NCBI GenBank assembly: GCA_010093605.1
Contig: MU004198.1
Coordinates: 746,726 to 810,725, forward strand
Direction: 5' to 3'
DNA from: Lophium mytilinum
Lineage: Eukaryota
Length of the DNA: 64,000 nucleotides
A program made the position numbers and the translations under genes. Below, in pieces: positions 727-43,061 of the stretch (its first letter is position 1; every line of letters starts with the position of its first letter). The notes under the pieces are model-generated. The model made no database searches, was not told where the DNA came from, and saw nothing but the letters and a program-made list of their open reading frames with translations.

Positions 727-3700
727 TTAGGAGCCAGCTCCATATTGCCGCATCAGTTCGATCGCCGCCGGATTTCCCCAGCGCTGGACTTCCTCAAAAA
801 TGGTTTTCTGACCAGGGCAGGTCGGAGGGTCGATATTAGCTCCTGCTTCGAGTAAGATGCGCATTACCGTCACACGTCTGGCCCTCAGAGCGAGTCTCAG
901 TGCAGTGTCGAAGGTATCAGATTGGGCATTTACATCGGCTCCGTAATCAAGTAGCAGTCTAGTAATGCGTTCTGCATCTTCAATCGTGAACTTGAACTGG
1001 CCTATACTTCCAGCGATGAGATGTAGAGCGAATCTAGGCGGTTGCCAGATATGGGGGTAGTCATCCTTGGGGCTTTCAGGTATGTTCGGATCAGCTCCTA
1101 GCTCCAGCAGGGTACGAACTACGGGTTCATTTCGGTCGGCTACCGCCCAATGCAATGGGGTACGGTTGAAATACTGGCCATGGATATCCGCACCAGCTTT
1201 TACTAATGTACGTACAACTTCTGGACGGCCAAGACACGCCAGAATCGGTATGGAGGACGCAATTTGGCTGTTTGGATCAGCGCCAAGATCAATAAGCTTG
1301 TTGATCCACTGGACATCACTCCCGAGATCTTGAACAGCAAAACCAAGGGCAAAATTTCGAGCTGCTGGCGATAATAGGTCGGGCGACCACCAAGTGGATA
1401 CTGACAGCCAGAGATTATGGCGGCAGATTACCTCGCACAGGATGAAGGTTCCGCAGTCCGGCGCCAGCTCGGAGGTTTCCTTGACGCATTTTCGACGATT
1501 CCAGAATTCATAGGGTTCTTGGCAGCGGATCATGGACAAAAGATACAGCTTCAAGAGGTGTATGAGTCGGCTATCTCGTACTTTTAGACCATTGCTGAAA
1601 TGAAGATGTTCTCCCCAGTAATATCTGCAATAATCTCGAATCTTCGTTCGTGAGCGAGGATCTTTCTCCCGTGCTTCGGACCTGTAACTCGCATGCGTGC
1701 ATGGCTTCCTCAAGATAGGTTCTTCCCACGGGATTAGGACAAGCATGCAAATTTTCGAGGCGAAATGAACGTGGTCTGCCTTTGGCCAAAATCCCAAAAA
1801 ATATTCTTGCGCAGACAGATGGCAGAAACGATAGACGTTTCCATCCAAGACCACGAGATTACGGCATGCGTCTAGAATAAACTTCCAACTGACGTCCGGA
1901 TCTGGAGTAGTAAACCCATCGGTCTCCGTATCCTGGCATACTACGGCAGCAAGGACGTCTAGTGTTGGCGGTTCGTAACAAGACGCGAGCCACTGGAGGG
2001 CCCTCAAAGCGACGTCTCGTTTGCTGTCGTCCAGCTCTTGTGTGTCGTTGTATATTTCGCGATACGCGTCCGGTAGACCTTCTGGAAGTTTGCGTAAACG
2101 GTCTTGGATGTCTTGAACTCGATAACTCTTTAGGAGTCGCTTTATTTGCAGGCTGGCATACTGGAACCTAGAACAATATGAGCCCGACAGAACTACCATA
2201 GCCACAAAGAAAAAGACTAAAACTCACATATCATGGGACTTTCGTATGATAGTGTCTTTTATGTCGTTTCGTAGTGAGCCAGCTACGATCTTCTGCCATT
2301 CTTCGTCACTTTTATCCATTACCTCGTCTAGAAACGTTGCGATATCGTTCTTGTTATCTTTGGCACTGATACCGATGTTTCCGGTCCTCCCAAGTCGTAT
2401 TTGGATATCTGTGTTCTCTCTACTCGCAATCAGAATCTTTAGAGGCCTGGTTGATCCATTGGCCAGAGCGTCTAGTACTCTCATGATTTTTAGTCGGGAC
2501 TCTTGTTCACATTCATCCAAAGCGTCTAGGATAAGAGTAACCGTTGAGAACGTGTTGATGACGTGGCTCAAAAGTTCTTGCGTTTCTTCCATTCGAGGGC
2601 CAGATTGGCTACATTCAACAGCGTCCCGGTCTTTTCTCTTCGTATATGCTTCTAAGATTACTCTTTGAATAGCGTGGCCGGATCGGCTGATAGATAGCTG
2701 TCGTAGTAGGCTATTCAAAACTGAGGCTGGGTCTCTCCTACTCTCTTCTGCATTGTTGCAATAGAAATACGCGAGTCTTTCATCTTCAGGCATCGCCTTT
2801 AGTTCTTCGATCGCATTTGCCACAACATTGGTTTTCCCCGCGCCAGCTAAAGAAAGCATTAGATCAAAATGTATCAACTAAGGCTTGGCTGAAGACTTAC
2901 GGATGCCGTGAAGCCAAAGTGTAGTACTTGCTGTTGATTCTCTCCACTCGCGGTACTCAGCTCGACTCAGAAACCATTTCCCAGTCCCTTTCGCTCGTTT
3001 TTCTTGTACATAGGAATGATGATCAGCATGAGGGACTACAGAAATCCAATCAAGGATTTTTTTGTTCTCATGGCGCTCGGATCGAGCCCACAGCAAAGAA
3101 ACCTGCTCTTGTACGACGGCTATAGGCTTGGCCAGCTCATCCAGTTGCATTTGAACCCTTTGCTGGTGATCAGCTGTGCAAGTTCCGTGGTAAATCCTAG
3201 CCTCAATATCAACGTCCTGGGTGGCTTGTCGAAGCTTGTCGATAAGATCCGTGATCTTGTCTGAGTTGAGCATTGCATGAGCTGCTCTAGCGACAGTGCG
3301 GCGGTCATAAAGTAACAACGTTGCAGCAATAAAGCGAAGAGTCTCGTAATATGAGTTAACGAGACAATTCAGGAGGTTTGCTCTGGCCTGATCTGAAGAT
3401 CTGCTCATGCCGTCAAGGTAACTGCTTTCGTAAACCTTGCATCGATTCACAAGCATGCATACTATCTCTAAACCGATGAGCAGGTAGCCTGCTTGCTCGC
3501 TCTCGACGACAACAGTCTATTTTAGAGTTAGTAAATATCTCAGTGAGAAGAAGCTCATGCAAGCTCACCTGAAGTAGAAATCGGACGGCAGCCCATGGTA
3601 GAGCTACATGGACAGGATCACAAGTGGCGGCGAGGTCGCCAACGGCTTTCAGTTTCTGGACATAGCCGATGATGCTATCGGCTACATTTCGCAACACAAA

Positions 3701-4156
3701 TTCTTTACCGCCAAATGTGACTTTCCATTGTGATTGCTCGCTCTTAATTTTCTTATCCGTCGCAATTCGGCAAAGCTGATCAAGCTGCTGTACTACTGAC
3801 TCGTTGGATTGAGATTGAGGTGAGCGATATTGAGAGATGATCTCCTGTTCACGGTCCGATAGTTTTTGAATAGCGCGATCCCAGAGATTGGACGGGTTCA
3901 AGATGCCGCCTGGAATTCCGGACTGCGGAGCACTGGGCTGGTTCTGGAGAGTTGTCTCTTCGACACAGATAGCTGATGCTTTGGATTGTTCTGGGGGAGC
4001 TGATACGGCGACGCTGGATTTTGGAGGAGAAGAGGAACGTCTTCGAGCGGGGGCTGGGAGGAGTCCGGCGGGTGTGGCTGTTCTGTCGTGGCGTTCCTCC
4101 GCGGACCTCGATTTTCCTCTCCCGAACCACCAACATCGTCTTCGTCCATCAACCAT
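727..4156 (-). CDS. NLR-like protein: helical N-terminal domain + NACHT NTPase + ankyrin repeats (4 exons)
   Basis: GT-AG introns at 3517-3568, 2847-2900 and 2168-2227 join four ORFs. Splicing restores Walker A (WLHGIPGAGKT). Walker B is ILDALDEC, followed by MFQYASLQI and FCHLSAQEYF. C-terminal ankyrins include TPLHWAVA..GADPN and TALRLAL..GANID. The N-terminal ALPWAAVRFLLQ motif is typical of fungal NACHT N-terminal domains. Confidence 0.92.
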
Positions 4157-5770
4157 CTTTACTGCGCTTATCAACACGTCTTGTTAGGCTTTGATCTTGA
4201 ATCTCAACTCGCAAAGGATTGATTTTTCTGCGCAGAGTAGCAACTCTGCGGCACTTCACAAGCTCTGAGGGGTAGTCGCACATAGGGGCACGAGGAGGCA
4301 TTGCCAACTCAGCGCGTACGACTGGATGCAACGAGACACTAACGTTCGTTGCCTACCGTGGAAGGAGCGAAACGATGTTGCATAGGACTGTCATACTCCC
4401 ACAAGCGCTGCATCGGATCCGTTGCATTCACGAATAGCTGATAGGCAATTTCGAAAGGGCCCCTCTTACGAACTCAGATTGAAAACCTCATCATTGGATT
4501 CTGGTGTAGGACAGAGTAACCATGTGCTAGACCTAAAGACTCTCAGGGATGCGACTTTACCCGGTAGTATCCCCCCCTCAGGCGCATTTCGAGGCCACGT
4601 CAATCAATATCGGAGGTAGATGTATTTCACATTGTTCGCTGTGTTGATAAGCACAATAGTCGTGGCTTAATCTGTCTTGCGGTAATGGGCTATAATATGT
4701 TATTGAGTACGAATCAGCCGAGTCGAGCCAATCGTTTCCTGGGTGCGAGGACGGTACTACAGCGTCCCGCAGGCTCTCAAACAGTTTTTTGCCTTCATTT
4801 ATTCATCTCGATACAAATTGAATCGCTATGTCGCTCATTATACTGCTCCCTTGAAGTCTTGGAAATGCTATACTCTTTTTCAATATACCATCATCTCTAT
4901 ATTTCTCCAACGGTTTTCGGGAGCTCCTCAATCACGGTTCTTGACGGTCCGACTTTCTCCAGGCAATCGGGCCTCAACTTTAGCCACAAAGAATGCCGCT
5001 ATACTCATTTATTCTATGTTTAAAAAAGAGACAACTGGAAAAGAGTGTCAAACATCACTCGATATGGTAAGAGCTGGGTAGTAGGACTTCGACGAGAACC
5101 TTCATGACCAATGAGCAAGGATATGTTTGGACGGAAAGGAAGAGCTGCACACGAATTATTGATCGGCAGTCTGAAAGAATGTCGGTAACTCGTTCCCATC
5201 CACGCGTATGAAATGGGGAACTCCTCAGTCGGCGCTCTGTGGCCCGCAGAACTGGAAATCAAGATGGCAAACATCGATATGAGACCGGCCTTAGGACAAA
5301 TCATGGCGTAAACAACAAGGCAAACGTGGAGCAAGCATCTCGAAAGCTATATCTGGGCCGATGGAGCCCTTGTTGGACTCCTGACACGATTCTCAGACGG
5401 AGGTGAGGGTCGATCTGGTATAAACAAAACACCGAAATAGTTTACTGCTTGCACAATGCACCAGAACCCCTACGAAGACCCCCGCTGGGAAGTTCCCTGC
5501 CCCGTCAAACCTACCGGTGCCATCGCCGTCCCCGTTACCTGGAGAACTCAGATTCACTGGAAAAGAGCAGATTTTGGAAAGAGAGAGGCATATAAATACC
5601 CCTTTCTACCGCAGGACCACCAGGACATCTTTCCTAACACTCACAAACACCACCACACCCACCACTACACCTATCACAACGCCCAACCTAGTCTCAACTT
5701 TGTCTGTGACATTTCGGTCCTCCCACTGAGACCACAACCACTCTTCCAGATCAACGTGCTCAACAGCAAC

Positions 5771-14811: not shown

Positions 14812-16760
14812 CTATACCAGCATAACCTTTCTTAGACGAAAGTCCCCGACACCTTTTTCTCCAGAATATATGTCTCTCGGAAATTCAACACCCGCAAGCC
14901 AGCACGCTCCTATGACCTCAAAATATGTGCCATCAATTGGTCGCAGAACGATTGAGGCCGGGCACTGCAAGAAACCATAGATCTGATCACCAGGCCTTGC
15001 CTGTGGCGGCAGTCGAATAAGGCTGCCTTGTTTCGACATACCCAGACGCCACTCTCCACGGAAAAGTCGAAGTTTTTGGTTGACGGCCTGCCACACGCGC
15101 AGTTCGACTTCAATTTGGTCTTCCGTGCTCAAATTCTGAAATTCCTCGTCTAAATCTTCTGCGTCATCGCCATGCTGGTCACTTGGCTTATATTTCTGGC
15201 GCACAGCTTCCTTTGAAACGTCGGTTGAAAGAGTGTCAATCCATTCTTCTACCACGTCCTTCTTTTCCTGCAACACGACCATTGCGAAACTCACGAGAGA
15301 ATACGGCAGCGAGCTGAGGGCCCCAGGAGGTTCACTGAATTTCACGTCGCCTCCTTCGAATAGAGGAACTCCCAGTTCTAGTTTCTCGCAGAGGTCTGCG
15401 ACGAGGTTCTCTCCCCACTCCGCAAATGACGTTGAGAGGACTCCGGCAACTGCGTCTAGCTGTAGGCTATAGACGGTGAGGATTCTCGAGTCACTTGAGA
15501 GTTTTGGCCAGAGCTGCAACGCGTGCTCGCCCCAGTAACGCAAGCCGTATTCTTCCGTGTCGATTCGGACTTGGTGGAGGATGTTGTCCCAGTTAGGGAG
15601 CCAGGTTGGTAGTCCGGCCTGCCGGCGTCCCTTTTCGACCATAGCAAGAAAGGCTACCGAACCGCAAACTTCTGCCATAAACCGCGCAACATCAAGGTGT
15701 ACCTGATCGACGGACCTGCGGTAATCAATTGGAAAGTGAGCCATTGCCGCGTCTGATGGTTGTATCAAGCCGAGTACGGCGTAGATCTTGTCCCTCGGGT
15801 CAGTGGCAACGAGCTTGTGGCCATCTGTGACAGCCTGGAGAAGAGATCTATAGCGATGTCCAGAAGGGAAAGATTGCAGATCTTCGAAATTAGGTCGATT
15901 TACACCAGTTAGCAGGACATGGCCCATGAGTAATCGTTCCCAGCGTGGATCCAAGGCCACCGTGTCATCTGAAATCTTATCCGACACAAGTTCCTGAAAC
16001 TGGTGGAGCTTACTGGCGTTAATGGAGAAGTCCCGGCATTGAATGGTAAGGGTTTCCGCAAAGGCAATCTCTTGCTGAATCCAGACTCTTGTCCAATATT
16101 CATTCTCCCCTATGAGAAGGAGGGGCTCCCAAACTTCTGGGTCATCTCCAAGAACATCATGATGGCTGCTAGTCCATGCAGTCAAAACTTTTCCATCCTC
16201 TTCTGATGGTAAGTCAAATGGCATTGGCGGAAGCAGGTCTTCCAGCATCTCAAATGCGGGGAGATATATCGGTAGATCGATGTCCAGCCAAATATAAACT
16301 CTCTCCGCCTGTGAATAAATCTCTCCCATCATACGGACCTGACTTGTCCGCTCCTCCCAATTCTCTTGATCGATACATATCGCATCAATCCAGATAGAAA
16401 ACTTTTTTTTCACTAATCGTAGGTGTCTCAACGCACTCTCTGCATTCTTCGTAACGGCAAACGCCTTGTCGCCATCGAGTTCTATGTTTGCCGTTACACT
16501 CGGATCTCCCCTGCAAGAATTTCAGCACTGACTACGTCGCATTTGGTACGGCTGATGCCTGCCATCGGTATGAGAGAGCATTGTACTCGGAATGCGGCCG
16601 ATCAAGTCTTATGATGACAAGCGATCCTACCAGTGGTGCTTCTCGCGCTCCAGGCTCCAGTGTCAGGACCCGAATCTCATTCTCCTTGAGCACGCCCTGT
16701 TATCTAAAGCATTAAACCCGTCTCAGAATAGCAACAGTTGCAATACCGTACCATCATCCT
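14812..16760 (-). CDS. Heterokaryon-incompatibility (HET domain, HET-6-like) protein; start uncertain
   Basis: Motifs EIRVLTLEPG, YNALSYRWGDP (after a GC-AG intron at 16511-16562), IWIDAICIDQEN..ERTSQVRMMGEIYSQAERVYIWL, YWTRVWIQQE, ATDPRDKIYAVLGL and LPTWLPNW. Confidence 0.9.
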
Positions 16761-17668
16761 TTTGGGGTAAGCATATGCCGTCTCTTTCCGGTCGCTAGAG
16801 GGCAAATCGCTGACCACTCTAAATGGAGTTGAAGGGTTGATGCATTTGTATATGTTCCTGCCGACTTCTGATGTGGAGGTCGTCTACGGTGAAGGGGACA
16901 GTGACGAAGATCCAACGAAACGGCGGAGCCACGGAACCGCACCTCGGGTGGCGCATAAAATACGCCGGGTTTCGGACGCTTTATAAATAGCATTGCAGTA
17001 AAGCCTCGCTATAACGTTTACCCCTTCGATATACCGCCGTTAGCTCAGGCTACTATTACATTTAATATACCATCATGTTGAAAGGCTCTCTTATATAAAA
17101 AGGTATATTAAGTGGAAAATTTGCAGATGTTAGTGGCCTGTAATTCTTTGAACCCTCTCAGCAATAAATCACAGGTACTATTAATATCTAAGGCCTTCCG
17201 GCCTTTAAATTAAATTCCATGCGTTGCTTTGTTGCGTGATATCAATACGGTATAACGTTTACACCTCCCAGTCCTGATCCAAACGGTATATCGAGGTTTC
17301 ACTATATTCCGGCCAGCGTGATAAGTTGCCTTTTTCACGCCTTTTTTTCGCTCCGAAAATTCCTTCGCGCCGTGTACGACGAATCTGTTCAAGAATCTGT
17401 CGCCAATGCTACACCGTATCTTGCGGACACAGAAGGGACCTTATGTTTCGTTTGTTTTTGTCACCAAGAAGCCAATGAGCCATCGGGTAGTCACGAGCAT
17501 CCATCAGATAAAGAGCAAAATAGCGACCAAAACTACCTCTAAGAGCAAGAAAAATATACGTCAAATAGTAGCGAACTAAATTATCGGGGAAAACCAGCTG
17601 TAGCACGACTCAAGATTATACTGGAATAGTGGACAAGCGGGAAAAATACTGGCTGCGCTATATCCCAT

Positions 17669-19906
17669 CTAACCCACCGTAAGGGTGTTCAGATCCGACT
17701 TTAGGAAGTAATCGATTGGAGATATCTCCCCGTCATCAACATCATGCGTTATGATCAGTAGCCCAACTCTTCGGTATACATCTCGACTGCCGCTATCAGG
17801 CGCCAGAACCAGCCCGGACGGATAATATCCCGTCTGAAGAAGGATACAGTAAAGCTCACCATTACCAGGCCACCTTGAAGCCGGCATGTCATTCAAGATA
17901 CGGCCGAGCGGATGGCCGTTCACAGTGAATATTGAGTTACCTCGAATCCTCGGCAGTATATCTGGTGCATCCATATACACCACTTTCACAACATGGCCCC
18001 TTAAGTCGACTTCAGCTTCAGCAACATTATCGAAGCCATTTAACTTATCGTTTAGTCGAACCCTAACATCTACCACGGAGCAAGCGTCCTTCTTCGCCCC
18101 TCTTGGCAAGGTTGTCGCTTGAAACCTCACTCTCCCACTCATTTTGGCCCATGACCAAGATGGTTGGTCCTCAGCAACGTCCGTTTGCTCCCTGTTAGAA
18201 TTATACCAGGTCAACGCAGCCGGCAAATCTTCGAGCCAGATACCAGCGACATAGCTGCTTTTGCCTGTGGTTTTCTGATAGGCCTTCGCAATGCCTGATA
18301 TCGCCGGCAGTTTGTCTGATGCGAATGTCAAATGGCGCCTTGTGTACTCTTCTACGAGCTGTGTCCACCACTTGAGCGAGGACGAGTCAAGCTGAACTGT
18401 AGATGGCGGAATGGCGCTAAGCCCAAGAGCCACTTTCAAGTCTGGGAAATTGCCATACATATACAGTGCATCATCGTCGAACCGACCATCCTGGCGGAGA
18501 GTAGTCTCACAGCATTCCCAGTAGAGCTGGTCAGACCCAAAGTATAACACGCGCGGCGATAGTAGCTGCTCTTGAAAGATCCATCCTCGTTCATCGCAGG
18601 GCGAGTTGCGAACACTGTCAGCCTTCCAGTCCGGCGATCGCACGTATATCGAGCCTGTCAACGAACACTCAGCACAATCGGAACAATCCCAGGGTAGGCG
18701 GCATGCGGGTGGCTCGGGGGCTCTAGTAATGAAGCATCCAACGTTGGAGTTTGAAGCTCCCCTTGCCGAGATGTTGAGATATCCATTTCGGTATACAGCC
18801 TCCATGACTGCAGACTCCTTCTGCCAATCGGAGGCGGAGTCTTGCAAGATACATAGAGAGTCGATCCACAGGTAGCGTACACCCAGCTTACGAGTGACTA
18901 GAACTGCGTCTCGGAAAGTCTTTGGTAGCGAGTTCAACGGTATTGCACGCTCGTGCTCCTTCAAGTTCCCTGTCGTTGTTGTTAACGGGACTTTTCCGCC
19001 CCAACAATGAGTCAAAGTCACGTAGGGGCCGTGTTCACCCTTGGAATCAAGTAGACATGGTTCCAATTTATCATCCGGGGAGCCAACGTCAATGACTCTG
19101 GTGGGTAAGGGTGTCCTTGGGCGAGGTTTGCGACAACGTGAATGCTGAGAGCAGCATTGAGAGAGCCATTCCTCGATCAACGCAAAATCGTCGTCAGAAT
19201 CTCCTGGGGTCGTGGGCAGCGGACGACCGTTGACCTGACCATGCCAAGCTGCAGCGTCATCTTGCATTATTTGTAAGAAGCTACATATTAAGAATGACGA
19301 GTTCGCGATCTCCAATTACATACCTCTATAAGTATAGATTTGAACTACGCCTTGTAGAGCGATCTGATGGTTTGGATGCATAGTTGGGTCATCGATACCA
19401 TCGACACCATCGTCTGGTATGTCTCCTGTAGTTATAACGTGTATGCGGTCGAGGTTTTTCCCGGCTCCTCCCCAAGCTACGAGTGATATGCCACGGCCGG
19501 GATACTCGACTGATACTTGCGCTAAAGCGGCAGCGCTCTCATCGCCGTCTCCTCTGCTGAGAGCGACGCAAAAGAATTGGCATAGTCGACATCCTGCCTC
19601 GGCGGATAGCTTCAGCGCGAGATAGCTTGGCTGATGAGGCTGCATCTGATCGAGAAAGGGTCCGCGCATCTTCTTTACAGAGATGGTCTGGCATAACGAG
19701 CAGAGAGACGTGGTGTTTGTGACTTGGACGTCTGATTCGTTTTGTTCGTGCCGGATTTCAGCTTCAAGATTGCTTGACGTGGGGCGAAAGCGAGCTATCA
19801 AAAAAGCAACTGCAGCTGAAGCATGAGATCGAAAACGCCATCGCCGCCACGCGAAGCGGGAACCTGGAGATGCCCCGAAAAAGTAAATCTTCCTGAATAA
19901 ACGCAT
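17669..19906 (-). CDS. HET domain protein (TOL-like)
   Basis: Intron 19261-19323 joins two ORFs. Motifs LCSLC, WLSQCCSQHSRC, LPTRVIDV, YVTLTHCWG, LPKTFRDAV..LGVRYLWIDSLCILQD, RGWIFQE.LLSPR, DKLPAISGIA and PSWSWA. Confidence 0.93.
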
Positions 19907-20724: not shown

Positions 20725-22544
20725 CTACGCCTCTCTACCAACCTGCTTTCCTTTAACAGACTTCCACTCCACGAACCATGACGCCACAAACGCAAAGCCC
20801 GACACCCCAAGAGCACAATAAAAGACATTATTGATTCCCTCATTATACGCAGCTAGAAGAATCGGAAGCTGGCTTGGGGGGACCAGCTTCGAGAAGTCCG
20901 TCGCCCCAGAATTCGAGATCGATGACACTTCCAGTCCTGGTATTTGCTGAGCGAGCTTGGATCGAAGTGTGCTGGACAAGATGCCCTGACAAATACTGAC
21001 GAAAATAGTGCCGCCAACGAAATTGCCAAAGTTTATGATCGTGATGCCAATGGGGATATCTTCGCGAGCTAAAACCGTTTGCGCTGCATTGTTGCATTGT
21101 GAGAGGCTCATGCCCATGCCAGCACCGGTAATCAACTGTCCAGGTTAGCTTCGATCCTACCTAGCGCACTATAGTCAGGAGAGGGCACTTACCTGGAAAC
21201 CAATGGACTTCGCTGTGCTGGTGTTGACTCGGAATGTCGTGAGAAGGCCGCATCCAACTGTCAGCAGAGCGGTTCCTAGTATAAGCCATGGAGTATAGTA
21301 TCCCGTCTTCGAGACGACGATACCAGAAGTGATAACGAAAAACACTGTAATGAGGAAGTAGGGGAGCATTCGTACACCAGCATCGATGGCAGAGAGTCCT
21401 TTGATGGCCTGGTACCAAATAGGCAGGTAAAACGTCACAAGAATGAGCGTGGAGCCAAATCCTAACGATACCGCAGCCCCTGCCGAAATACTTCTCTTGC
21501 GCATAATCCTTGGTGGTAGTGTCCCATTCTCTCCAGTCCAGATCTGGGAAACGAGGAAAGCAAGTATAAGCATGATGCCCACGACAAGCGTCGCCACAAC
21601 CTGAGCAGAGCCCCAATGTGAGCCATTGCTACCCCATTGAAGTGCAAGCAGGAGCAACGTCAACCCGGGTACGAGGAGTGCGGTTCCGACTGGATCGAAT
21701 GATTTCAGTTGTTCTAGAATCGACTTGTCTGATTGATCCTGCGCAGGCGGGTTGTTGGGTACAAGTAGAATCAGCACAAGAAGTGCAACTCCACCGATCG
21801 GTGCGTTTATCCAGAAACACCACCGCCACGAAACATTGGATGCGAAGACGCCGCCGAGGAGAGGTCCAGCTATAGAGGCAAGGCCGAATGTGGCGCCGAT
21901 GAAGCCTTGGTATTTTGGTCTCTTTTGTAACGGCAAGAGGTCGGCGAGGATGACATTCGCACCAGTCATATTGCCAGCACTGCCAATTCCCGCAATGGCC
22001 CGTCCAATGATGAAGGTAGTGGAGTTGGGAGCTGCAGCACAGATGATGGAACCGATTTCGAATATTGCTACGAGTACGACGAAGGCCCATTTGGCAGGAA
22101 AGAATGTCTATCGTAATTGCTGTTAGCGATGTACGAGCAGCAAGAATACCATACGTACGTATACTTTGCCAATTGGCAGTTGTAGCGCAGCAAAGGTAAG
22201 CAGATACGCGCTTTCGTACCACGCAATGTCACCAAAGGAATGGAAGTCGTTAGAAATCGCAGGTATCGTGACTCCAATAATGGTTCGATCCTGATTGGGA
22301 CAGTTGTCAGAAGGTGTATCACTGTGCTTCTTTACGAGAGACATACCAGAGCGGTGAGGAAGACTGCCAAGCATAACGAAAAAACCACAGGCAAGATGAC
22401 TTTCTGACTCGAGTGTTGAGGATCATCGCTTTCGTTCTTATACTCGGCTTTATGATCGGGGCCCTCGAGTTGCAGCTCATAACTGCTGGCCTCAGGAGCG
22501 GATTCGCCCAGACGGTGTGAATGATTAGGTCTAGGCCAACGCAT
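20725..22544 (-). CDS. MFS drug:H+ antiporter (DHA2, 14-TM efflux pump)
   Basis: Multi-exon gene with LAVFLTAL/DRTIIGVTIPAISNDFHS, WYESAYLLT, GPLLGGVF..SWRWCFWINAPIG and AYNEGINNVF. Confidence 0.93.
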
Positions 22545-25997: not shown

Positions 25998-27606
25998 GTT
26001 GATGTGTGGGGACGAAGGACGAGAATTTGAATGAAAAAATGGGTTGCAAGTCGAGGATTGTTGCGGTTGCGATTCGATTGGCCTATACCAAGAACCGGAG
26101 ACGATACAACAGATAAATAGCCCATCCGCCAAATCTACGTTCGTCATAGATCTCAGATCGACGGTTTGTGACATGATGCGTTGCCGAGGATTTACCAATG
26201 ATTTGGTGGATGCGGACACCGCTAGCAATTACTATCTCGCCAATCTCTACGCTATTCCACGCTATTACGCGCTATTGCACACTATGACGTTGCTCTTGCA
26301 GCTTGTGACGGTATGTTGTCAGATTATTCTACTCTTGTACAAACCGAAGACAGCGTAGGGGTAAAATGTACAACAGCGGCTTCTATACAGCAAAGTTCGT
26401 GGCTTCATTAGCTGCGCCGAGGTACTAGACGCAGCAAGACTCTATACTGCAACTTCCTCTAGCTTTATTCCTATATACATGGCGCAAGACTAGCGCGCCT
26501 ATGCAGCCTACCAGACCTTCCCTCCGTCTGCGGCGTTGTCCGGTTCTCTCACTTCCGAATTTCCTCTGGGCCTCGTCAGGACGGTGGCCCGTGGGAGTCC
26601 CCATCCCTCCTTTAAAAAAAGACACCGCAAGCGCGCGACGTCACACCAGCCCTCTTCTCTTACTACGTCCGACATCTAACTAGCAATCCACTCCTAGATG
26701 CAAGTCCTGCTAGTTTCTTCGCTGAGCCTCTCTAAGCCCGGCGCATTATATAAAGGGCCCCAATCCTCCTACAACTCTCTATCAATTATATGGGACGGTA
26801 TATTTGTGAGACGACATGTTCCTAAAATGACAGTTTCTCAGAAGAACATGTTTCCAAGATAGCTTTATTCTTAAGACCCTAATATTCGAAGACAAGGACA
26901 CTCTCTAGACACCTTTTCTCTTAAGATTAGCCGCTCTTCATCTAAACCCAGGCCTCAGCCGACCTCAGCTATAACGGCGCATGACTACGTAAGTAGCGGA
27001 GCTTGCGCATCGTGCACATTGGTATAGTATAGCAAGTTGTATAATGTTCTGATATGCACCTAAATTGTTTCCTTTCTCGTTTAGAAGACGGAGCAGCTCG
27101 TGCTCTAACATAAGTTGTGTCTGTGCGGTGGAGACCCTAACCTGAGACCGAGCAGCTCGATAGAACCCAGTCTTCGGCCCTCAGACCCTGGCCCTGTAGT
27201 TATCAGGGAGAGGTGAGACTAGGTTCCTTCCGCTACATCTAAAGACCTATTTCCGGGCTTATAGGCCTGCTAGTCTCCAGTTTCAGGGCCTACTTCTCGA
27301 GTAGACTGACCCTTCGACGCAACACAGCCGAATGCTGAGTCATCTTTTGAGATGACAACCAGGGCGGGACGATCCGAGCCAAGGTAGTGGTTTGCTAATC
27401 TACGCTGCATTTGCTATCAGACTTCGCCTATTATAGTATCCGCGGCCTTGAGATTGCTGCAGGGCCAGGGACAATACCGTGTAGCCGGGAGGTATAAATA
27501 GCCTGGCTTCGCTCTTCAATTCAGGCCATCATACACCTCTCTGGAGCAGCCAAGCAGTTTGAAGGAAATTGGAGCAAATCAGATCTCAAATCCTCATAAA
27601 CCCAAT

Positions 27607-28356
27607 ATGGCAAAGCCCATCACGCTCTACAGCTTCGCCCCTGGCCCCAACCCCTGGATCGTAGCTATCATACTCGAAGAGTACGACACACCCTACGAAA
27701 CTATATTCATGTCGAGAGAAGACATCCATCAAGAATCGTACGAGCTGAAGAATCCGAATAGAAAGGTACCGACCATCGAGGACCCGAACACTGGCATTAC
27801 ACTCTTTGAGGTGCGTTTCCAATATCCAGATCGCATGTTCCACGCAGTCTATCCTCGAATACAGCGATAATGACAACGCAGTCAGTCCGGTGCCATCATC
27901 CAATACCTCATCGACACCTACGACAAAACCAACAAACTCGTACACACCACCCTCCCACAGAAATATCTCACGCTCTCCTGGCTCAGTCTACAAATGAGCG
28001 CGCAGGGGCCGTACTTCTGGCAAGCCGCGTATTTCGCCTGCTTCCACCCAGAGAAGAGCGTCGCTGCGGCGATCGATCGCTATGTTACCGAGATGAAGCG
28101 GATCGTCGGCGTTATCGATCGTCACTTGAAACGCGCGGGGACGCAGTATCTTGTTGGCGATAAGTGCACGTTCGCGGATCTGGCGTTTGTGATGTGGGAC
28201 CAGATTATGCCGCTGCTGGTGGGTGAGTGGGATTTCAAGACTGAGGCTCCGGATTTTGCGGCTTGGAATAAGGGGCTGGTGGCGCGGGCGGTGCGGAAGG
28301 TATTGGCGGATAAGGAGAGGGCGACGTCTGCTGATCATGCTGCGCCAGCGTCTTGA
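27607..28356 (+). CDS. Glutathione S-transferase (Ure2/GST-II-like)
   Basis: APGPNPW, KNPNRKVPTIEDPN and ITLFE/SGAIIQYL across intron 27811-27885, then YLVGDKCTFADLAF. TATAAATA lies upstream near 27493. Confidence 0.93.
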
Positions 28357-34116: not shown

Positions 34117-34295
34117 TAGCCTCCGTGACTCACCGCCGCCTCGCACAGCCTTGCTTACTTAGCGTCTCAGCCTACCCGAAATTGTACTTAAGCTACCCAT
34201 ACGAAAATCTGTCGAAAATCATAATCTTCTTATATCTACAATTGCATTTCCCTTTCTGATATAGCCAGTTCCTCATAATTTGGTCGATCATCACA

Positions 34296-35094
34296 ATGCT
34301 CATCCGCCCCCTACTCCGAGAAGACCTCCCCGCCGTCGCACCCATCGTCCACGACACCTTCTCCAACGACGAACTCTTCACATGGCTCTACCCCCATCAA
34401 GAAAAATACCCGAATGACCTCCGCCGCTTCCAGCTCATCCGGCTGCGCTCGCGCCTCGTCCAGCTCGGCTCCCACGGCTTCGTCGCAGAATCGGAAGCAG
34501 GTGACGCGGAATGGAACGGCGCGCCCGAAATCCTAGGTTTCGCGTTCTATATCCGCGAAGGGAACGACGAGAAGGCTGCCAAATGGCGGCAGGACTCGAT
34601 CGCGAAGCGTACGTTGCGAAGAGCGATTTGGGTTGTGTTGTGCTGATTGGATGGCAGGGTTGGATAGGTATCTACTCAGCTGGGAGCAGTGGTATGAGGA
34701 GAAGGCGTTAGACCGGGCCTCAGATCCCGCCCGGGCGAAGATGATGCATGCTGCGACGCAGTACAGCTTTTATTCGCAATTGGAGTCGTACTGGTATCTG
34801 GGGTTGCTCGGCGTGTCTCCCAAGCACCAGCGCAGGGGTATCGGCGCGAGGCTTGTGGCGCATGGGCAGAAGATTGCTGCGGAGGATAAGATGCCTGTGA
34901 CGCTGGAGGCGAGTGTGATGGGGCGGGGGTTGTATGCGAAGCTGGGCTTTTTGGAGATTGAGAGGTTGAAGATTGTAGACGGGCTGGAGGGGGTAGCGAT
35001 GCTTTGGGAGCCGGAGGGGACGGAGGGAACGTGGTTGGTGAGAGGGGAAGGTGAGAAGGCGAAGTTGAAAAAGAAGGAAACGGAATCGTCGTAG
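34296..35094 (+). CDS. GNAT family N-acetyltransferase
   Basis: MLIRPLLREDL start, intron 34609-34657, motif A WYLGLLGVSPKHQRRGIGARLV and motif B LEASVMGRGLYAKLGF. Confidence 0.92.
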
Positions 35095-35399
35095 CCGTAT
35101 TGAGATGGCTGATCTCCTCGCATACGACCGCAAACGGGTGCCAGGCAGCTAGACAAGTGCCAACTTTTCATGCGACAAACGCTGCCCTCTCTGAGATGAC
35201 CGCAACGTAAAGCAAGCAGGATATGTGTCTTTGGTGAGCTATCATGAATAGTATTCATATATCAAAGAGCCATCTGATTGGTTAACTGTTCATCTCACAC
35301 TCAGTTCTAGATCTCAGTAATCTCCGTCCAATCTCTCAATGTACTTCTTCAAGTGCGTAGTCTGCGCAGGCAACGCGATTCACCACAACCATAACACGC

Positions 35400-36387
35400 T
35401 CAGATCTCCCCCAGTTCCCAACCCACGAAGGAAACTCCACCGAGCTTAGTATCCAGTAGGTCAGTGCTCAAAATTTCCTTCTTTCTGGCCTTCAATTCAT
35501 CTACGTCCCAGTTCACCCACACAAACTTACCCCTGAGAAACTCGGCCTCGGAGCTGACCAGCCACAAGCAGAAGTGGCCAGGCAAATCGACTGCCGCGCG
35601 TTTAGTTTTCAAAGTGCTTAAATAGGTTCATGGGGCGCAAGAAATACAGCGAGCGAAGCAGTAAGAAGATTTGAGGTAACTTACTATGATCCATGCCACC
35701 ATGGCCGCTCTTGCGACTCATGTTGGTATCAACAAGGCCGGGGTGGACGTTGACGACGTGAAGCTCAGGATTTTCGAACGCTATGTAGTCGAACAACTTT
35801 GCCGCCGCGGCCTTGCTTGCAGCATAGGCGGACACACCAGGCTCTAGCGGTGGCATGTGGCCAATAGCAGTAGAGATGTGCAGAATATGCGCTCCTTCGG
35901 CTGCATATTTGACGAATCCTTTGACTGTGTACAGCGCTCCCAGAATGTTGGTGTTAAACGCGGTCCACCAGTCCTGCACATCGAAATCTGGGCTGAGTAC
36001 AGGTCGAGGGACTGGCATAAACGCGGAGTTGCAGATCAAGACATCGATCTTATCAAAGATTTGGCTGATCTTCAGGAAGGCACCATCGACCTGCTTCGCG
36101 TTCGTTATGTCGGTAGGCACGGCCAAGACTTCGGTGCCTAGGAATTCTTCTTCGATAGCATGTTTGGTCGCGAGAAGGTTCTTCTCGGTTCGGCTGATGA
36201 TAGCTATCTTAGTGCTTCCGCCAGCTGCGAAGGCCTTTGCGATGCTGGCGCCGATGCCGCTTCCACCGCCGGTGATAACAACAGTCTTGTCTTTGACTGA
36301 GAGCTCAGGACGGGATGGTGATATGGCGGGGTATGATTCGCTATGCGACAGTTTGGTAAGAGATGGAAAAAATGAAGAAGAAGCCAT
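35400..36387 (-). CDS. Short-chain dehydrogenase/reductase
   Basis: TGGGSGIG cofactor motif, YAASK catalytic motif, VHPGLVDT, intron 35591-35684, then DLPGHFCLWL..FLRGKFVWVNWDVDEL. Confidence 0.93.
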
Positions 36388-37407
36388 ATTGGCAGGCGGG
36401 TGGGAAGGTTTGTTGGATATGATTGATGTAGCTTGACACGCAGAGTACTGGTAGACTTATTCATTGACCACTGTCTTCTTTTTAATACTTTTTCTCCAGG
36501 CTTAGCGTTCGGCCAGTTTCAATCTCTAAGTCGCGCTAGACAAATCCGGTCCACATATTTCGTGGTACATCTCCGAAGACGTTTGCTACCAAATTTCGTG
36601 ATTTTTCCAATCAACATTCCCCGATATTATTAATCAGCTTCCCTTTTCGCTTTGTGAGTTACCCTTGCTTTTCGGAAGTACGGACGATTCGTTAGTGTGC
36701 AACGCAATTGTAATAGCTTCATCACACTGCCTCCACCATCCTAGTTCAGCTGAAAGTCCCAGCAATCGTCAAATTGATTCGTGTATCAGCCGGCGCGGGG
36801 CCTTTGAAACCAGTGGATCTTGTTTAAGCTCTTCGCTCCATGTAAGCCCAGCAGGTCGTTATTGTTTAATAGTGCAATGCTACAGCCTATACTTCATTAA
36901 TCCGCATGCGAACTGAACTTATTGCGTTGTGTTTCTAGCGGTTCTTTTAACATAGCAAAAAGGGGTAACGAGGTAATTTCCGAATAAGCGGAAAGCCCAG
37001 TTAAGGGCCAATAGTAGTTCTTGTAAATTTTCACGCTCATGTAATGCGGACAGCGAAGTACGTAGTTACACGTGATCTTATATCTCAATATCTGGGGGAC
37101 TGATTTCTCTGAGAAGGAAAGAATGAAGCTATTCAATTTCTTTAGAATGCAATGACACTGTTTCCAAAAGCTCTATATAGTTTTGGTGACGATAAACTTC
37201 GTCCATTTTGGTGAGTCGGCCACTCGGGGCGGCTTTAGAAAATCATTACTAATCAAAGTGGGACGCCATTGCAGCGTACAACGGAATTCCGTAGTCAGCT
37301 TGGTACACCCCCGTTCTCTGATACACACCTAATCGTGAGACGACAAAGAATAGGATTTCTCCACCACTAGACTGTGAGATAAAGCACTTTAGTCTTATCC
37401 CACCTGA

Positions 37408-39307
37408 ATGGAGGAGCCGGTGAGCCAGCGGAGCGCACTGCACTGTCCGGTGTGTCAAAAGCTCTACACAAACGCTTCCAACTGTAAGAGACTACCGACG
37501 AAGCGAATTGACCCGGTTTGACATCATGTAGCACGAGCTAAGAGTAGGCATATCTCATACTGCCGCAAGAAACACCAATCAGGCCCCCTACCTAGAAGGA
37601 AGGCATGTGATGAATGTGTGCGGTCTAAAGTCCGCTGCAGCTCGGGTCCTAGATGCTGCTCTCGATGCGCTTCAAGGGGCATCTCATGTAGTTATCAAGA
37701 TACCCTGAACGGCCAAAATGCAGCCAACCTGGTCTCTGAAGCACATAGCGGTAGCCTTACGCGAGCCGCCTCCTTGCAGCTCACCGGCGTAGCCCCTGTC
37801 AACACCCCGGCCCAGTCTTTGAACGGTTTTATGCGCGGCATCGACAGTCCTTCTGTGGAGACTGAAGAGACATGCAGAAATAACAGTCCTTCCATTACGA
37901 ATTATACTTGGGATCATCAGATATTCGGACCTGAGTGTTCATATGTGTCTGACCTAACGACAGACTTTGGTCCAGTTGAAGGAAACCCTCTCGGATCTCA
38001 TGTCGACGCCTCTAGCATTAGCGGCGAGGCACAGTCACAGCTTGCGTCCAATGCTATTACCCTGTCAGAGCAATCACTTCAATCGTCATTCTCCATTCCA
38101 GCATCGCTGTCTTATCAAGATCCTTCCTCATTGTTTGAACGGCGCAAGTTCTCAGAGCCAGAGCTTGAGCTTACTGGCGACCTCGCACTGCACATTCTTC
38201 GCTCCTACCCATACATGATGGCCAACCAGGGCTCTGTTCCTCCTTTCATCCACCCGAAATACCAGTATTTGTCTGAAAGTGACACGGCACGTCCAAATCC
38301 TCTCGATGCAGCCCTGAACTTAGCAAAGATGTTGCTGCATGGCCGACGTATGAACAAGAGCTTGATCTGGGGATTGATTCGAATCGAACAGGAACGACTG
38401 CTTAACGAGGTACGTAGTGAGCCCCTCTATGCCAGGGCTCGGAAGCAATTAATGCAATCACACCCTCCGGTTGACCTGGGGCCAACAGTAGGGTCGTACC
38501 ACCGTGCACGGTAGTTCTTGAGGTGCAAGATCAATTCAATCGCACCCTCTGGTTAATTGATTCCGAGCTCTGCCTCAATCCGCGCTGGCAGTTAGGTGAA
38601 ACTAGATTACTGACCAGAGCCACTGCCAAATAGTACCCCAGCTTTAGCAAGTGGGAGGTTCTGGAGACGTTGCAAGCTCTCGTTATCTACATCCTCCTGA
38701 GGATTATCGAGGGACGCCATGACTATACCAACTTTGATACCCAGCTTCTGGCTTCAATTAATGTGAGCAGACATGGTACAAACCCTTAAAAAGCCCAATT
38801 TACCATACTCACGAAAAGAAATGTAAAGGCGATATGCAGGCACATCACCTCCAAATATGGTAATCTCATCAGCCCTGATGAACTTAGAGGTCGAATGATC
38901 TCATGGAAGGACTGGGTATTTTTCGAATCGCGTCGTCGGTAAGTGTTATACGAGACGGATATCCCCAGGTTAAACAGGCCTAGCTGACACGATTCATAAG
39001 AACTGCAACTGCTGTGCTTATTATAAACAGCATTATACACGCACAAATCACGACACCGTCCCAGGCCATGCCCGAGTATCCCTACTCGCCTGCACCGTCC
39101 CCTATCACGATGTGGCGTGCCGAGAACGAATTTGACTGGACCGTCGACTATACAGAATACCTACATAAGAACATGATGTATGGCATGCTCAGAAACGGCG
39201 ACCTTGTTAAGTTGAAGGAAGCAGCCGGAAGCCATCACGATAGGTGGTATGCTTATGCCGACTCGTTTGGCCTTCTAGTTACCTTAGTGGCAAACATGAT
39301 CAATTGA
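37408..39307 (+). CDS. Zn2Cys6 transcription factor with N-terminal C2HC-type finger
   Basis: Exon 1 CPVCQKLY and intron 37484-37531 lead to RHISYC..RRKACDECVRSKVRCSSGPRCCSRCASRGISC. Later motifs are PPFIHP, LQALVIY, WVFFESRRR and DSFGLLV. Confidence 0.88.
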
Positions 39308-39809: not shown

Positions 39810-41317
39810 TCAGTAGTCCTCACCACGGCTAATGACTTCCTTCACGGTGGGTCGGAGCAAGATCGTCTTTAAGCTTTATTAGGAGGTATATTTCAAGCGC
39901 ACCAAGACGACTACTCACGTGCTCAAACTGGGCTGTATACGACCCCTTCTTGTCAACCAACGGCGGGTAGTCCTCAACAATCCCGGATTTGACGAGACTA
40001 TTCAGCTGCACACTTGTCAACTACTTCACATGGATACTCTAGCAAGTAGGCATCTCATACCCCGAGTAGATACTTCTCCTGCCCAATCCTATCCAAATAG
40101 CGTCGGCAAAACGGAAGAGTGCCAAAATTCTTCGTGATAGTACTCAACAGCGTCTTAGCCGACAACAACCGCAAGTCCACCTTCGGCGCATCCCTACGTA
40201 GCGCATAATGCGAGACTTCGCCTTGATCGACACATCGGCCATTACCCGTGCTACCGAACGTCTCAATAGCAAAGACGTCACCTTCCTCCATCTTCGTCGT
40301 GTCGTTCGTCTTGACCGCGGGCACGCTCTTCGTGCCGTGGATGCTATACGGTAAGATAGTATGCCCAGCGAGGCTACGAATCGCCTTGATGGGGTAAGTC
40401 GTCCCATTGATCTCACACTCGTAGCTCTCCATCGCCTCCTGGATATACCCACCCAGCTCACCGAGACGCACGTCGATCCCTGCTTCGCGGACGCCGGTAT
40501 TCGTCGCGTCTTTCACCGCGGCGAGGAGGTTGTCGTACATGGGATCGAACGACATCGTGAAGGCGCTGTCGACGATACGGCCATTTACGTGGACGCCGAT
40601 GTCAACTTTCATGACGTTGTTCTGCTGCAGCACGGTCTTGCAGCCAGCGTTTGGGCTGTAGTGGGCCGCGATGTTGTCGAGGTTCAGGCCGGTTGGGAAA
40701 CCCATGCCGGCGATTAGAGCGTCGCCTTCAGAGAGGCCATTGTGGCCGACTAGACGGCGTACGCTGTCTTCGATACCGTTCGCGATCTCGGTGAGGGTCT
40801 GACCTGGCTTGATGTGCTTTTGTGCCCATTGGCGAACCTGGCGATGCGTCTCGGCTGCTTGGCGGTAGTCGGAGAGGAAGTCGCTGTTGATATTATCTAG
40901 ATGGCGCTTTTCTTCGTTGGTGGTGCGATAGCGGTTGTCATCTTTGTATTCGACCTCTTCGCCTCTGGGGTAGGTGTTGTTTGGGAATAGGTGGGATATG
41001 AGGATTGATGGAGGTTCGGTCTGAACTGTTGGAACTGCCTTCTTCTTCTTGGGCTTCCTCTTTTTGTTCTTCTTTTTCTTCGCAGCAGTGGGTTCAGAGA
41101 CATGTTCGTCAACGTTGTCATCCGATCGTTCCCCAGAGTGTTCTGTAGCATCCCCGTTTGTAGGTCCGTTAGCACCGGTGGAGCTGTTGAGCGTGTCAGA
41201 GTCTTCTACTAGACAATCATCTATTAGTAAACTTCGCGACCCAATACATCGAGGAGACACGAGATATAGCACACCACTGAACATCTCGAGCTCATCAACT
41301 GAGGTTTTAGCAGCCAT
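39810..41317 (-). CDS. MAP2: Methionine aminopeptidase type 2
   Basis: Poly-Lys N-terminal tract, [50 protein letters not shown] and ISRGEDY*. All five metal ligands are present. Confidence 0.96.
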
Positions 41318-41636
41318 TTTGACGAACTGAATAATCTTTGTGAAATTTGGTGGAAGGAGATCGGTCAACTTTGGCGCCAGCTGTGTTCCTGCCAGATTTT
41401 AAAGATTTAGAAGCTGACGTCGCCACATGGTTCTATGCCGTATTCGATGGTCGGAGTTCAACACCGACAACCTCATTCGGATTTTAGCGAGGCGGGGCTG
41501 ACTTCTTAAACGACACTTCTGTGCTTTGACTTACACAAAACCTACCAACAACATTGTTGTGTGCTTCCATCTCTCCGGCGGCCCCTCTTTCTGTTGCCGC
41601 TGCATTGGATCCCAGAAGACAACAAGCCCTGGTACG
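41318..41636. promoter_or_regulatory. Probable bidirectional promoter shared by MetAP2 and MetAP1
   Basis: 319 bp separate the divergent ATGs. Contains TCGG-N9-CCGA at 41451-41467 and a TGACGTC CRE-like site near 41415. Confidence 0.55.
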
Positions 41637-43061
41637 ATGGACGACATGTCATCAGAACCGCCATCCAAGAGAAAGTGTCTAGGAACAGACTGTGAAAACG
41701 ATGCGGGAGCTTTACAGTGCCCGACGTGTCTGAAGCTGGGCATTAAAGACAGCTATTTCTGCTCCCAAGATTGCTTCAAGAGAAACTGGGTTTGGTTCCG
41801 TATTCGCTGCGTGCTAGGAATTTAGGCTGACAAATCACGTGATGAAGAACCAACATAAGACCATCCATAAAACAGTGCAAGGCAATACTCAGAATGGTAT
41901 GACCCGCAGGAGAATTCCTTGAAGATTGTCTCTAAGATCGATCTAGTGACCAGAACTTACAATCCTTTTCCAACGCATTCATTCACCGGCCCTGTCCGAC
42001 CAGTCTATCCGCTTTCTGCGAAGCGCAGCGTCCCGAAGTCGATAAATCACCCTGACTGGGCCGAAACCGGCATACCAAAAGGTGAAAAGCGCTTGAGTAA
42101 GACGAAAATCGACATTTTAGATGCCAAAGGGCAAGAGGCGATGCGCAAGGTGTGCAGATTAGCTCGAGAAGTCCTTGACATCACCGCCGCAGAGCTGAAA
42201 CCGGGCATTACCACCGATTATCTTGATGAGATCTGCCATAACGCTTGCGTGGAACGGAACGTAAGCTTGGCTAGCCTATGGACGATGTTTAGTACTCCTA
42301 ACCTTGACAGTCATATCCTTCTCCCTTGAACTACAATCACTTCCCCAAATCGCTGTGTACTTCTCCGAACGAAGTCGTGTGCCACGGGATTCCTGACCAG
42401 AGAGTTCTTCTAGATGGCGATATTCTCAATCTTGACATCTCGATATACCACGAGGGCTATCACGCTGACCTCAACGAAACATACTACGTAGGCGATCGGG
42501 CCAAAGCGGATCCAGATTCAGTCCGGGTCATTGAAACGACCCGGGAATGCCTAGACAAGGCGATTGAACTCGTGAAGCCCGGCACGCCCATCCGAGAGTT
42601 CGGCAAGGTCATTGAGAAGCATGCCAAGTCCAGAAATTGTAGTGTCGTTGCGACCTGGGGTGGCCATGGCATCAACACTGAGTTCCATCCCCCGCCGTGG
42701 ATACCCCATTATGCCAAAAATAGGGCGGTGGGAGTGTGCAAGCCCGGGATGACTTTCACGATCGAGCCTATTCTTACGCTTGGGAAGCCGAGCGAAGTCT
42801 ATTGGCCGGATGATTGGACGAACGCCACTGTTGATGGCAAGAGGACTGCTCAATTTGGTGCGTATAGAAAGTTTTCGCGTATAAAAGGTTCTTCGCGAAG
42901 TCGGGCCAAAGGCTAACAAGCGTGCAGAACATACTTTACTTGTCACAGAAACAGGCGTCGAGGTCTTGACTGCGGCGAACGAAAATTCGCCTGGAGGTGC
43001 TATACCGTTGCCGACGGCTCCGAATGAGACAGCAAAAGCTGATGGCAGATCCACGGTATAG
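41637..43061 (+). CDS. MAP1: Methionine aminopeptidase type 1 with N-terminal zinc finger
   Basis: CLGTDC..LQCPTCLKLG..FCSQDCFKRNW zinc finger, YPSPLNY..FPKSLCTSPNEVVCHGIPD, NLDIS..HADLNETY, GHG, FTIEP, WPDDWT and AQF/EHTLLVT. Confidence 0.96.

Follow-up and report, generated by a model that had tools for sequence, protein, structure and literature searches.

A head-to-head MetAP2 and MetAP1 gene pair in Lophium mytilinum, related to the fumagillin-cluster aminopeptidases, as a candidate stand-alone inhibitor-tolerance cassette

The closest described counterparts of the gene pair reported here lie in fungal biosynthetic clusters, for which we drew on excerpts of three papers. According to the excerpts of PMC7020470, the fumagillin cluster of Aspergillus fumigatus holds a gene for a type 2 methionine aminopeptidase (MetAP2), Afu8g00410 or MAP2-1, together with the C6 transcription factor FumR and a type 1 methionine aminopeptidase (MetAP1), Afu8g00460. 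The housekeeping MetAP2 of the same fungus is Afu2g01750, and the excerpted text treats a protective role of the cluster enzymes as a hypothesis that is not yet proven (PMC7020470). In a pseurotin-related cluster of Metarhizium anisopliae, two methionine aminopeptidase genes, MANI_120428 and MANI_029068, are consecutive (excerpt of PMC5088523, Table 2); their control expression is 31.5 and 109.7 reads per kilobase per million (RPKM), and most cluster genes have 0-2. Hydroxy-ovalicin is the product of the Metarhizium robertsii version, which shows mesosynteny with the A. fumigatus supercluster, according to the excerpts of PMC9600275. Here we describe a MetAP2 gene and a MetAP1 gene that stand head to head in Lophium mytilinum, a fungus of the Mytilinidiales (Dothideomycetes), within a stretch of 64,000 nucleotides (GenBank assembly GCA_010093605.1, contig MU004198.1, positions 746,726 to 810,725 of the forward strand), which we call the window and by whose numbering all positions are given. 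An earlier annotation made from the letters alone (the sequence-only reading) had proposed a candidate stand-alone resistance module here and had pointed to the extra MetAP1 and MetAP2 in the A. fumigatus fumagillin cluster.

Duplicated MetAP genes in the fumagillin cluster were already known. A directly linked MetAP2-MetAP1 unit across three fungal classes, both with and without a cluster, appears to be new. We found no description of a conserved MetAP1-MetAP2 gene pair in the full-text literature, a search whose coverage leaves out subscription papers and the original cluster paper.

Structure, transcripts and active-site residues of the pair

Both genes are intact, with every catalytic residue that we checked in place. 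The divergent arrangement and the 319 bp between the two ATGs given by the sequence-only reading are exact (Table 1). On the minus strand, read directly from the sequence, MetAP2 has its start codon at 41317-41315 and a TGA stop at 39812-39810; on the plus strand, MetAP1 has its ATG at 41637 and a TAG stop at 43059-43061. MetAP2 belongs to the type 2 class (MEROPS M24A), aligning over its full length with the ribosome-studied chain 8onz (668 bits) and with human 1b6a (465 bits), and its main exon matches Peptidase_M24 (PF00557, 6.8e-23) in Pfam. A Lys-rich block can be read in its N-terminus. A deposited 443-amino-acid (aa) L. mytilinum protein (P0001), from a 1.52-Mb contig, matches the main exon with 100% identity, and the four-exon model gives that protein exactly when exon 3 ends at 41205. 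The five-exon model of MetAP1 rests on alignment with homologues and on GT-AG sites. It encodes a type 1 enzyme, with the zinc finger zf-C6H2 (PF15801, 2e-18) in exon 1 followed by the catalytic domain (PF00557, 7e-34) in exon 4, and the spliced 398-aa product is 87-93% identical to named MetAP1 proteins. Lophium MetAP1 itself was absent from the protein-search matches, which covered lengths of 327-2000 aa. Public annotation may lack the MetAP1 of the window or carry a shorter model; RNA backs 398 aa.

Contigs from run X3, each matching the window at 99% identity or more, skip all seven introns where the models put them: three in MetAP2 (CT..AC) and four in MetAP1 (GT..AG). A DNA run (X1) retains the same seven. 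X3 therefore contains spliced RNA from both genes, which confirms the models. X3 is one RNA-like data set whose RNA label is a guess, though its contigs skip introns, and contig depths were not used to rank genes. The first MetAP2 intron has a NAGNAG tandem acceptor at 41206-41211. The X3 contig uses the upstream acceptor, 3 nt earlier, which adds one Val and gives 444 aa; the deposited model uses the downstream acceptor, giving 443 aa.

The 319-bp region presumably serves as a shared, bidirectional promoter, as the arrangement suggests. It contains a TGACGTC element at 41415-41421 and otherwise only short repeats; a repeat scan of 41318-41636 found nothing past short matches of chance size. 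The element, a bZIP/CRE-like core, has a near copy, GCTGACTTC, 84 bp away, which could be chance.

The best 120 matches were taken for each of MetAP2 and MetAP1. In our MetAP2 alignment (A1), D216, D227, H296 and E329 of the Lophium protein are invariant, and the Glu of the FEH motif is conserved in comparison with 8onz. We take human D251, D262, H331, E364, E459 and His231 to be the metal ligands and the catalytic His. Lophium MetAP2 retains the metal ligands and the catalytic His, the equivalent of His231 being located by offset to chain 1b6a. The same offset gives His, Ala, Glu, Ile and Ala at human positions 231, 362, 364, 228 and 229, respectively. His231 is the covalent fumagillin site and Ala362 a sensitivity residue.

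At human position 229, two residues before the reactive His, Val is found in six of six rows of the fumagillin-type clade described below (P0118, P0113, P0052, P0087, P0012 and P0116). Most of the other best-120 MetAP2s carry Ala there, and a few carry Thr or Val; in the window, this part of MetAP2 is encoded around 40640-40680. Val at 229 may be a candidate insensitivity change, as observed in these alignments and not as an established determinant. With the His231 and Ala362 equivalents retained and the Val signature absent, a change that would make the target insensitive is not visible in Lophium MetAP2. After the reactive His, AGCK is found in Lophium, the lichens, Aspergillus tanneri, Dothidotthia, section Flavi and the fumagillin-type clade, and AGNK stands at the same place in Xylariales and Hypocreales copies. 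The motif NLD-x-IAAH, with Ile for human Cys228, was considered as a marker of cluster copies and rejected, being common to all 120 best matches including the Xylariales mainstream.

Relationship to cluster copies and pairing in other fungi

We placed Lophium MetAP2 in a combined tree of 128 rows, built by a quick method, and in a careful tree of 60 rows. In the 128-row tree, mainstream Sordariomycete copies form a grade and carry NHCAAH, the motif of human and 8onz; beyond them comes a large NLD-x-IAAH clade, within which fall the mainstream lineages of Xylariales and a class-crossing clade of 41 rows. In the 60-row tree, the class-crossing clade has support of 100/99 and a 22-row subclade within it 98/89. 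Lophium and Mytilinidion group together (100/95), and their sister (99/93) is a six-row, fumagillin-type clade of A. fumigatus MAP2-1, A. fumigatiaffinis, Diaporthe batatas, Hypoxylon sp. CI-4A, Neopestalotiopsis and Monosporascus sp. CRB-8-3. The Teloschistaceae branch next (95/90). Over 369 aa, the Lophium protein and MAP2-1 share 84.3% identity; with mainstream Sordariomycete MetAP2s the figure is 74-78%. Among the best 120 matches, the A. fumigatus cluster copy is present (the cluster of P0118 contains MAP21_ASPFU) and the housekeeping copy is not. A tree with the fumagillin-cluster copy had been proposed by the sequence-only reading, and the grouping with MAP2-1 (Afu8g00410) supports its idea of a module related to cluster copies.

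Dothideomycetes contribute only five species to the best 120 MetAP2 matches, alongside lichens, Eurotiales and Sordariomycetes. Monophyly of the five Dothideomycete rows was rejected in an approximately unbiased (AU) test (p 0.001). The root of the 128-row tree, set by two metagenome outgroup sequences, nests the class-crossing clade among Xylariales; these outgroups are distant and on long branches, which makes the root unsafe, and we claim no donor lineage from it. Representatives at 50% identity were too coarse to separate MetAP2 paralogues, the best full-length one being only 58% identical and the higher rows fragments. The ESM Atlas returned generic family names only for MetAP2.

Several fungi carry both a MetAP2 of the class-crossing clade and a mainstream one. 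Coniochaeta ligniaria has a cassette-clade copy (P0109) and a mainstream copy (P0409) that are 76% identical to each other, as does Ilyonectria robusta (P0053 and P0436, 76%). Hypoxylon cercidicola and Hypoxylon sp. FL1284 each have a paired and a mainstream copy (77% identical in H. cercidicola). Coniochaeta sp. 2T2.1 has two cassette-type MetAP2s (P0243 and P0244) on different large contigs and a mainstream copy (P0406).

In the MetAP1 tree, Lepidopterella palustris (Mytilinidiales) and the paired copy of Dothidotthia form a group with the spliced Lophium protein (98/87), and the lichens adjoin this group (85/80). A single clade for the four Pleosporales MetAP1 rows was rejected by the AU test (p 0.021). 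The paired copies of Metarhizium/Pochonia and Coniochaeta stand together in both trees (MetAP2 99/92, MetAP1 89/89), and because of this shared grouping the two genes seem to travel together. The Lepidopterella MetAP1 shares a 90% cluster with those of Clavicipitaceae; a transfer from that family was rejected, given its grouping with Lophium in the trees. A second class-crossing pattern in this family is seen in Xylariales MetAP1s (P0195, P0201, P0208 and P0211), which group with apparent mainstream Eurotiales MetAP1s (P0189, P0180 and P0181) at 99-100 in the SH-like approximate likelihood ratio test.

We then examined adjacency, defined as consecutive accessions or locus tags, from the identifiers of the best MetAP2 and MetAP1 matches and of chosen clusters. 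Both genes had identifiers in 32 other species, and in 20 of these, from three classes, MetAP2 and MetAP1 are consecutive, a proportion biased upward by the picking of many species in which both proteins seemed to share a contig. The consecutive pairs are found in Monosporascus sp. 5C6A, Dothidotthia symphoricarpi, H. cercidicola, Hypoxylon sp. FL1284, C. ligniaria, Coniochaeta sp. PMI_546, eight Teloschistaceae lichens (six Xanthoria, Rusavskia elegans and Polycauliona sp. 2), Pochonia chlamydosporia and five Metarhizium species. Both subclades of the class-crossing clade contain such pairs, and the Xylariales mainstream has one (Monosporascus sp. 5C6A). Three Apiospora species have their MetAP2 and MetAP1 at a distance of 5-10 genes. 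The remaining nine are non-neighbours: A. tanneri, A. nomiae, two Neopestalotiopsis, Diaporthe batatas (tag distance 62), Seiridium cardinale and three other Apiospora (91-150). In 12 further species, mostly Xylariales, the listed MetAP2 and MetAP1 are on different contigs.

The sequence-only reading held that MAP1 and MAP2 are normally unlinked, which fails for this lineage, in which the link is widespread and old. Its view of the two genes as a unit is strengthened by the same adjacency in 20 other species, and the survey for the pair that it suggested finds adjacency recurring. As judged from the alignments and trees, the cassette shares its gene lineage with the MetAPs of the A. fumigatus fumagillin and Metarhizium ovalicin/pseurotin superclusters. 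The consecutive Metarhizium accessions probably correspond to the MANI cluster pair.

The Apiospora species with a 5-10-gene gap (A. arundinis, P0629/P0177; A. kogelbergensis, P0630/P0640; A. hydei, P0115/P0643) resemble the A. fumigatus cluster in this spacing, and the genes between their two MetAPs may be a cluster. Among metagenome contigs, none of the 80 MetAP2 loci kept has an adjoining eukaryotic MetAP1. These loci are of Sordariales type, the best only 64-74% identical, and say nothing on the cassette clade. Three of them (L001:6001-7233, L006:6001-7215 and L007:6001-7215) have five stops each in single-frame translation, which may be in-frame introns or decay.

Compared with the excerpted descriptions of known systems, the Lophium locus shares features with each. 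Like the A. fumigatus fumagillin/pseurotin supercluster, it keeps MetAP2 and MetAP1 close together, and its MetAP2 shares AGCK and the high catalytic-domain identity with MAP2-1. In A. fumigatus, however, the MetAP genes are parted by fumR and other cluster genes amid biosynthetic genes, and MAP2-1 has Val where Lophium has Ala. The M. anisopliae pair is directly adjacent, as in Lophium, with its MetAP2 in the same class-crossing clade, and both pairs are expressed without a known trigger (in M. anisopliae in the control, with the cluster off). In contrast, the Metarhizium pair is embedded in a working cluster and lies in the other subclade. With the mainstream ribosome-associated MetAP2 8onz (match named Thermochaetoides thermophila, P0420), Lophium MetAP2 shares fold family, catalytic residues, a Lys-rich N-terminus and 74% identity; mainstream Sordariomycete MetAP2s differ in forming a separate grade with NHCAAH, and coexist with a cassette copy in Coniochaeta and Ilyonectria.

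Stand-alone cassette, housekeeping pair or cluster remnant

The pair lies neither inside nor beside biosynthetic genes: no core or oxygenase gene was found in the window, which reaches 40 kb to the left and 21 kb to the right. None of 150 stop-to-stop open reading frames (ORFs) of at least 100 aa matched a ketosynthase (KS), P450, terpene synthase or UbiA family in Pfam, and a relaxed Pfam scan of 15 unexplained ORFs returned nothing. Six-frame motif scans found no P450 haem, KS or acyltransferase active-site motifs. Only the major facilitator superfamily (MFS) transporter and ferroportin homologue ORFs have at least five membrane-like segments, and the window therefore has no candidate membrane-bound bergamotene cyclase. 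Within the limits of these ORF, Pfam and motif checks, the absence of a nearby polyketide synthase, P450 or terpene cyclase noted from the sequence alone holds.

The explanation we favour, with about an even chance of being right, is that the Lophium pair is a stand-alone copy of a conserved fungal cassette, probably an extra set giving inhibitor tolerance. The pair would form a second cytosolic Met-excision set beside a mainstream set. It would raise MetAP2 dosage and supply a MetAP1 bypass, and might thereby confer tolerance of MetAP2-directed epoxides, such as fumagillin and ovalicin, made by neighbours. We infer the extra-set status, the dosage-plus-bypass action and the protection from relatives and from known cluster biology; the "extra paralogs" of the sequence-only reading would fit those relatives that carry a second copy beside a mainstream MetAP2.

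Several observations weigh against this explanation. Both genes occur as spliced RNA without known inhibitor exposure, as housekeeping genes would, and the "inducible backup" of the sequence-only reading is without support in the sole RNA-like set, which has no known drug challenge. MetAP2 keeps His231, Ala362 and the other pocket residues checked, and has Ala at 229 in place of the Val signature. Both genes evolve slowly, with terminal branches of about 0.09, and keep their ribosome-associated N-terminal parts. The AU test permits Lophium, Mytilinidion, Dothidotthia and Dendryphion (four Pleosporomycetidae rows) as one clade (p 0.074), and because that clade is not rejected, the sister relation to the cluster clade is not secure. 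We did not recognise Afu8g00460, the MetAP1 of the fumagillin cluster, in the best-120 list for MetAP1. The patchy distribution rests on best-120 lists, which are without mainstream Dothideomycete and Eurotiales MetAP2s, and the other species show adjacency only, head-to-head orientation being known for Lophium. The pair could be Lophium's only cytosolic MetAP set.

The main rival, which we consider a serious possibility on the unlikely side, is a plain housekeeping pair, in which the two genes would be the usual cytosolic MetAPs of Lophium, perhaps its only ones, in an old co-expression linkage kept or broken by lineage and with no special tie to inhibitors. In every feature testable, the genes look and behave like housekeeping genes. 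Besides the transcription, the standard catalytic and drug-contact residues, the short branches and the high identity to 8onz, the pairing itself is old, given paired copies in both class-crossing subclades and the Xylariales mainstream, and the right window flank resembles core genome. In the excerpts of PMC5088523, even the M. anisopliae cluster MetAPs are already at 31 and 110 RPKM in the control, with the rest of the cluster near 0. However, Coniochaeta, Ilyonectria, Hypoxylon and A. fumigatus demonstrably carry a MetAP2 of the class-crossing clade as a second copy, and the A. fumigatus protein among the best 120 is the cluster copy, not the housekeeping MetAP2. Very few Dothideomycetes or Eurotiales have a close orthologue among the best 120, and the AU tests reject the taxon-based clades for the five Dothideomycete MetAP2 rows and the four Pleosporales MetAP1 rows.

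The lesser rivals invoke a cluster, lost or unseen. That the pair is the remnant of a fumagillin or ovalicin-pseurotin type cluster, whose biosynthetic genes were deleted, seems improbable to us. The known superclusters contain a ketoreductase. In the excerpts of PMC7020470 and PMC5088523, they hold a C6 factor and a glutathione S-transferase (GST) besides the two MetAPs. The window has a Zn-cluster factor beside MetAP2, a short-chain dehydrogenase/reductase (SDR), a GST and an MFS transporter that could be leftovers, a likeness by family type only, and the MetAP2 is sister to the fumagillin-type clade. Against this, the neighbouring factor gave only generic Zn_clus look-alikes, the MetAP2 is without the Val signature of that clade, and the occurrence of the cassette in 20 other species agrees no less well with an independent unit than with repeated loss of a cluster. 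Least probable of all is a working cluster with biosynthetic genes beyond the window or of a kind that the scans miss. The view is limited to 64 kb and MetAP spacing varies (5-10 genes in Apiospora; parted by cluster genes in the excerpted A. fumigatus cluster), but nothing like a core or tailoring oxygenase gene lies in the 40 kb to the left or the 21 kb to the right. Around resistance genes, fungal clusters are as a rule far more compact than this, which counts against such a cluster.

Beyond the stand-alone cassette in Lophium, a wider history can be proposed, which we regard as doubtful and somewhat less likely than the housekeeping pair. A "target plus bypass" cassette would have moved among, or been kept in, at least three Pezizomycotina classes independently of biosynthetic genes; superclusters would have captured it or grown round it, and in non-producers such as Lophium and the Teloschistaceae it would serve as an orphan defence. 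If true, the orphan cassette would be a eukaryotic counterpart of the resistance genes of non-producing bacteria. In resistance-gene-guided genome mining, a duplicated drug target beside biosynthetic genes is a signpost to a bioactive product. If the pair is a conserved unit also outside clusters, it would mark fungi prepared for competitors' MetAP2 inhibitors, not producers, and would suggest a source for the two MetAP genes of the fumagillin and ovalicin clusters. A lone MetAP duplicate would then be a poor predictor of a nearby cluster.

Neighbouring genes

The coordinates of the pair and of neighbouring genes are collected in Table 1. By Pfam, the left flank holds an NLR gene, two HET genes, an MFS transporter, a GST, a GNAT acetyltransferase, an SDR and two Zn-cluster genes; on the right lie an expressed gene of no assigned family, a RhoGAP gene, the ferroportin homologue and a racemase, and the GC content is higher than on the left. 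The "accessory region" of the sequence-only reading therefore describes the left flank and not the right.

Table 1. Positions of the MetAP pair and of selected neighbours in the window
Feature	Position	Strand	Basis or detail
MetAP2 coding sequence	39810..41317	minus	Pfam, RNA joints, deposited protein
MetAP2 exons	39810-39866, 39919-40005, 40061-41205 (or -41208), 41275-41317	minus	443 or 444 aa
Region between both start codons	41318..41636		319 bp, counted from the sequence
MetAP1 coding sequence (with N-terminal zinc finger)	41637..43061	plus	homologue alignment, Pfam, RNA
MetAP1 exons	41637-41789, 41848-41896, 41947-42260, 42311-42857, 42928-43061	plus	398 aa
Zn(2)-Cys(6) transcription factor	37408..39307	plus	Pfam Zn_clus; start codon read from the sequence
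SDR	35605-36456		Pfam
GST	27502-28353		Pfam
MFS transporter	20728-22228		Pfam

The Zn(2)-Cys(6) factor gene lies tail to tail with MetAP2 and has RNA joints at 37483/37532 and 38762/38829; the ESM Atlas returned only generic Zn_clus clusters for its product. At 730-4183 and 14815-19315, the window holds an NLR-type gene (NACHT_N, NPHP3_N/NACHT and ankyrin repeats) and two HET-domain genes, a content typical of variable fungal regions. The GNAT acetyltransferase gene, at 34264-35233 with one 49-bp intron, has the RNA contig with the top word depth, by a wide margin, of the stretch examined (1893), contig depth being a poor measure of expression.

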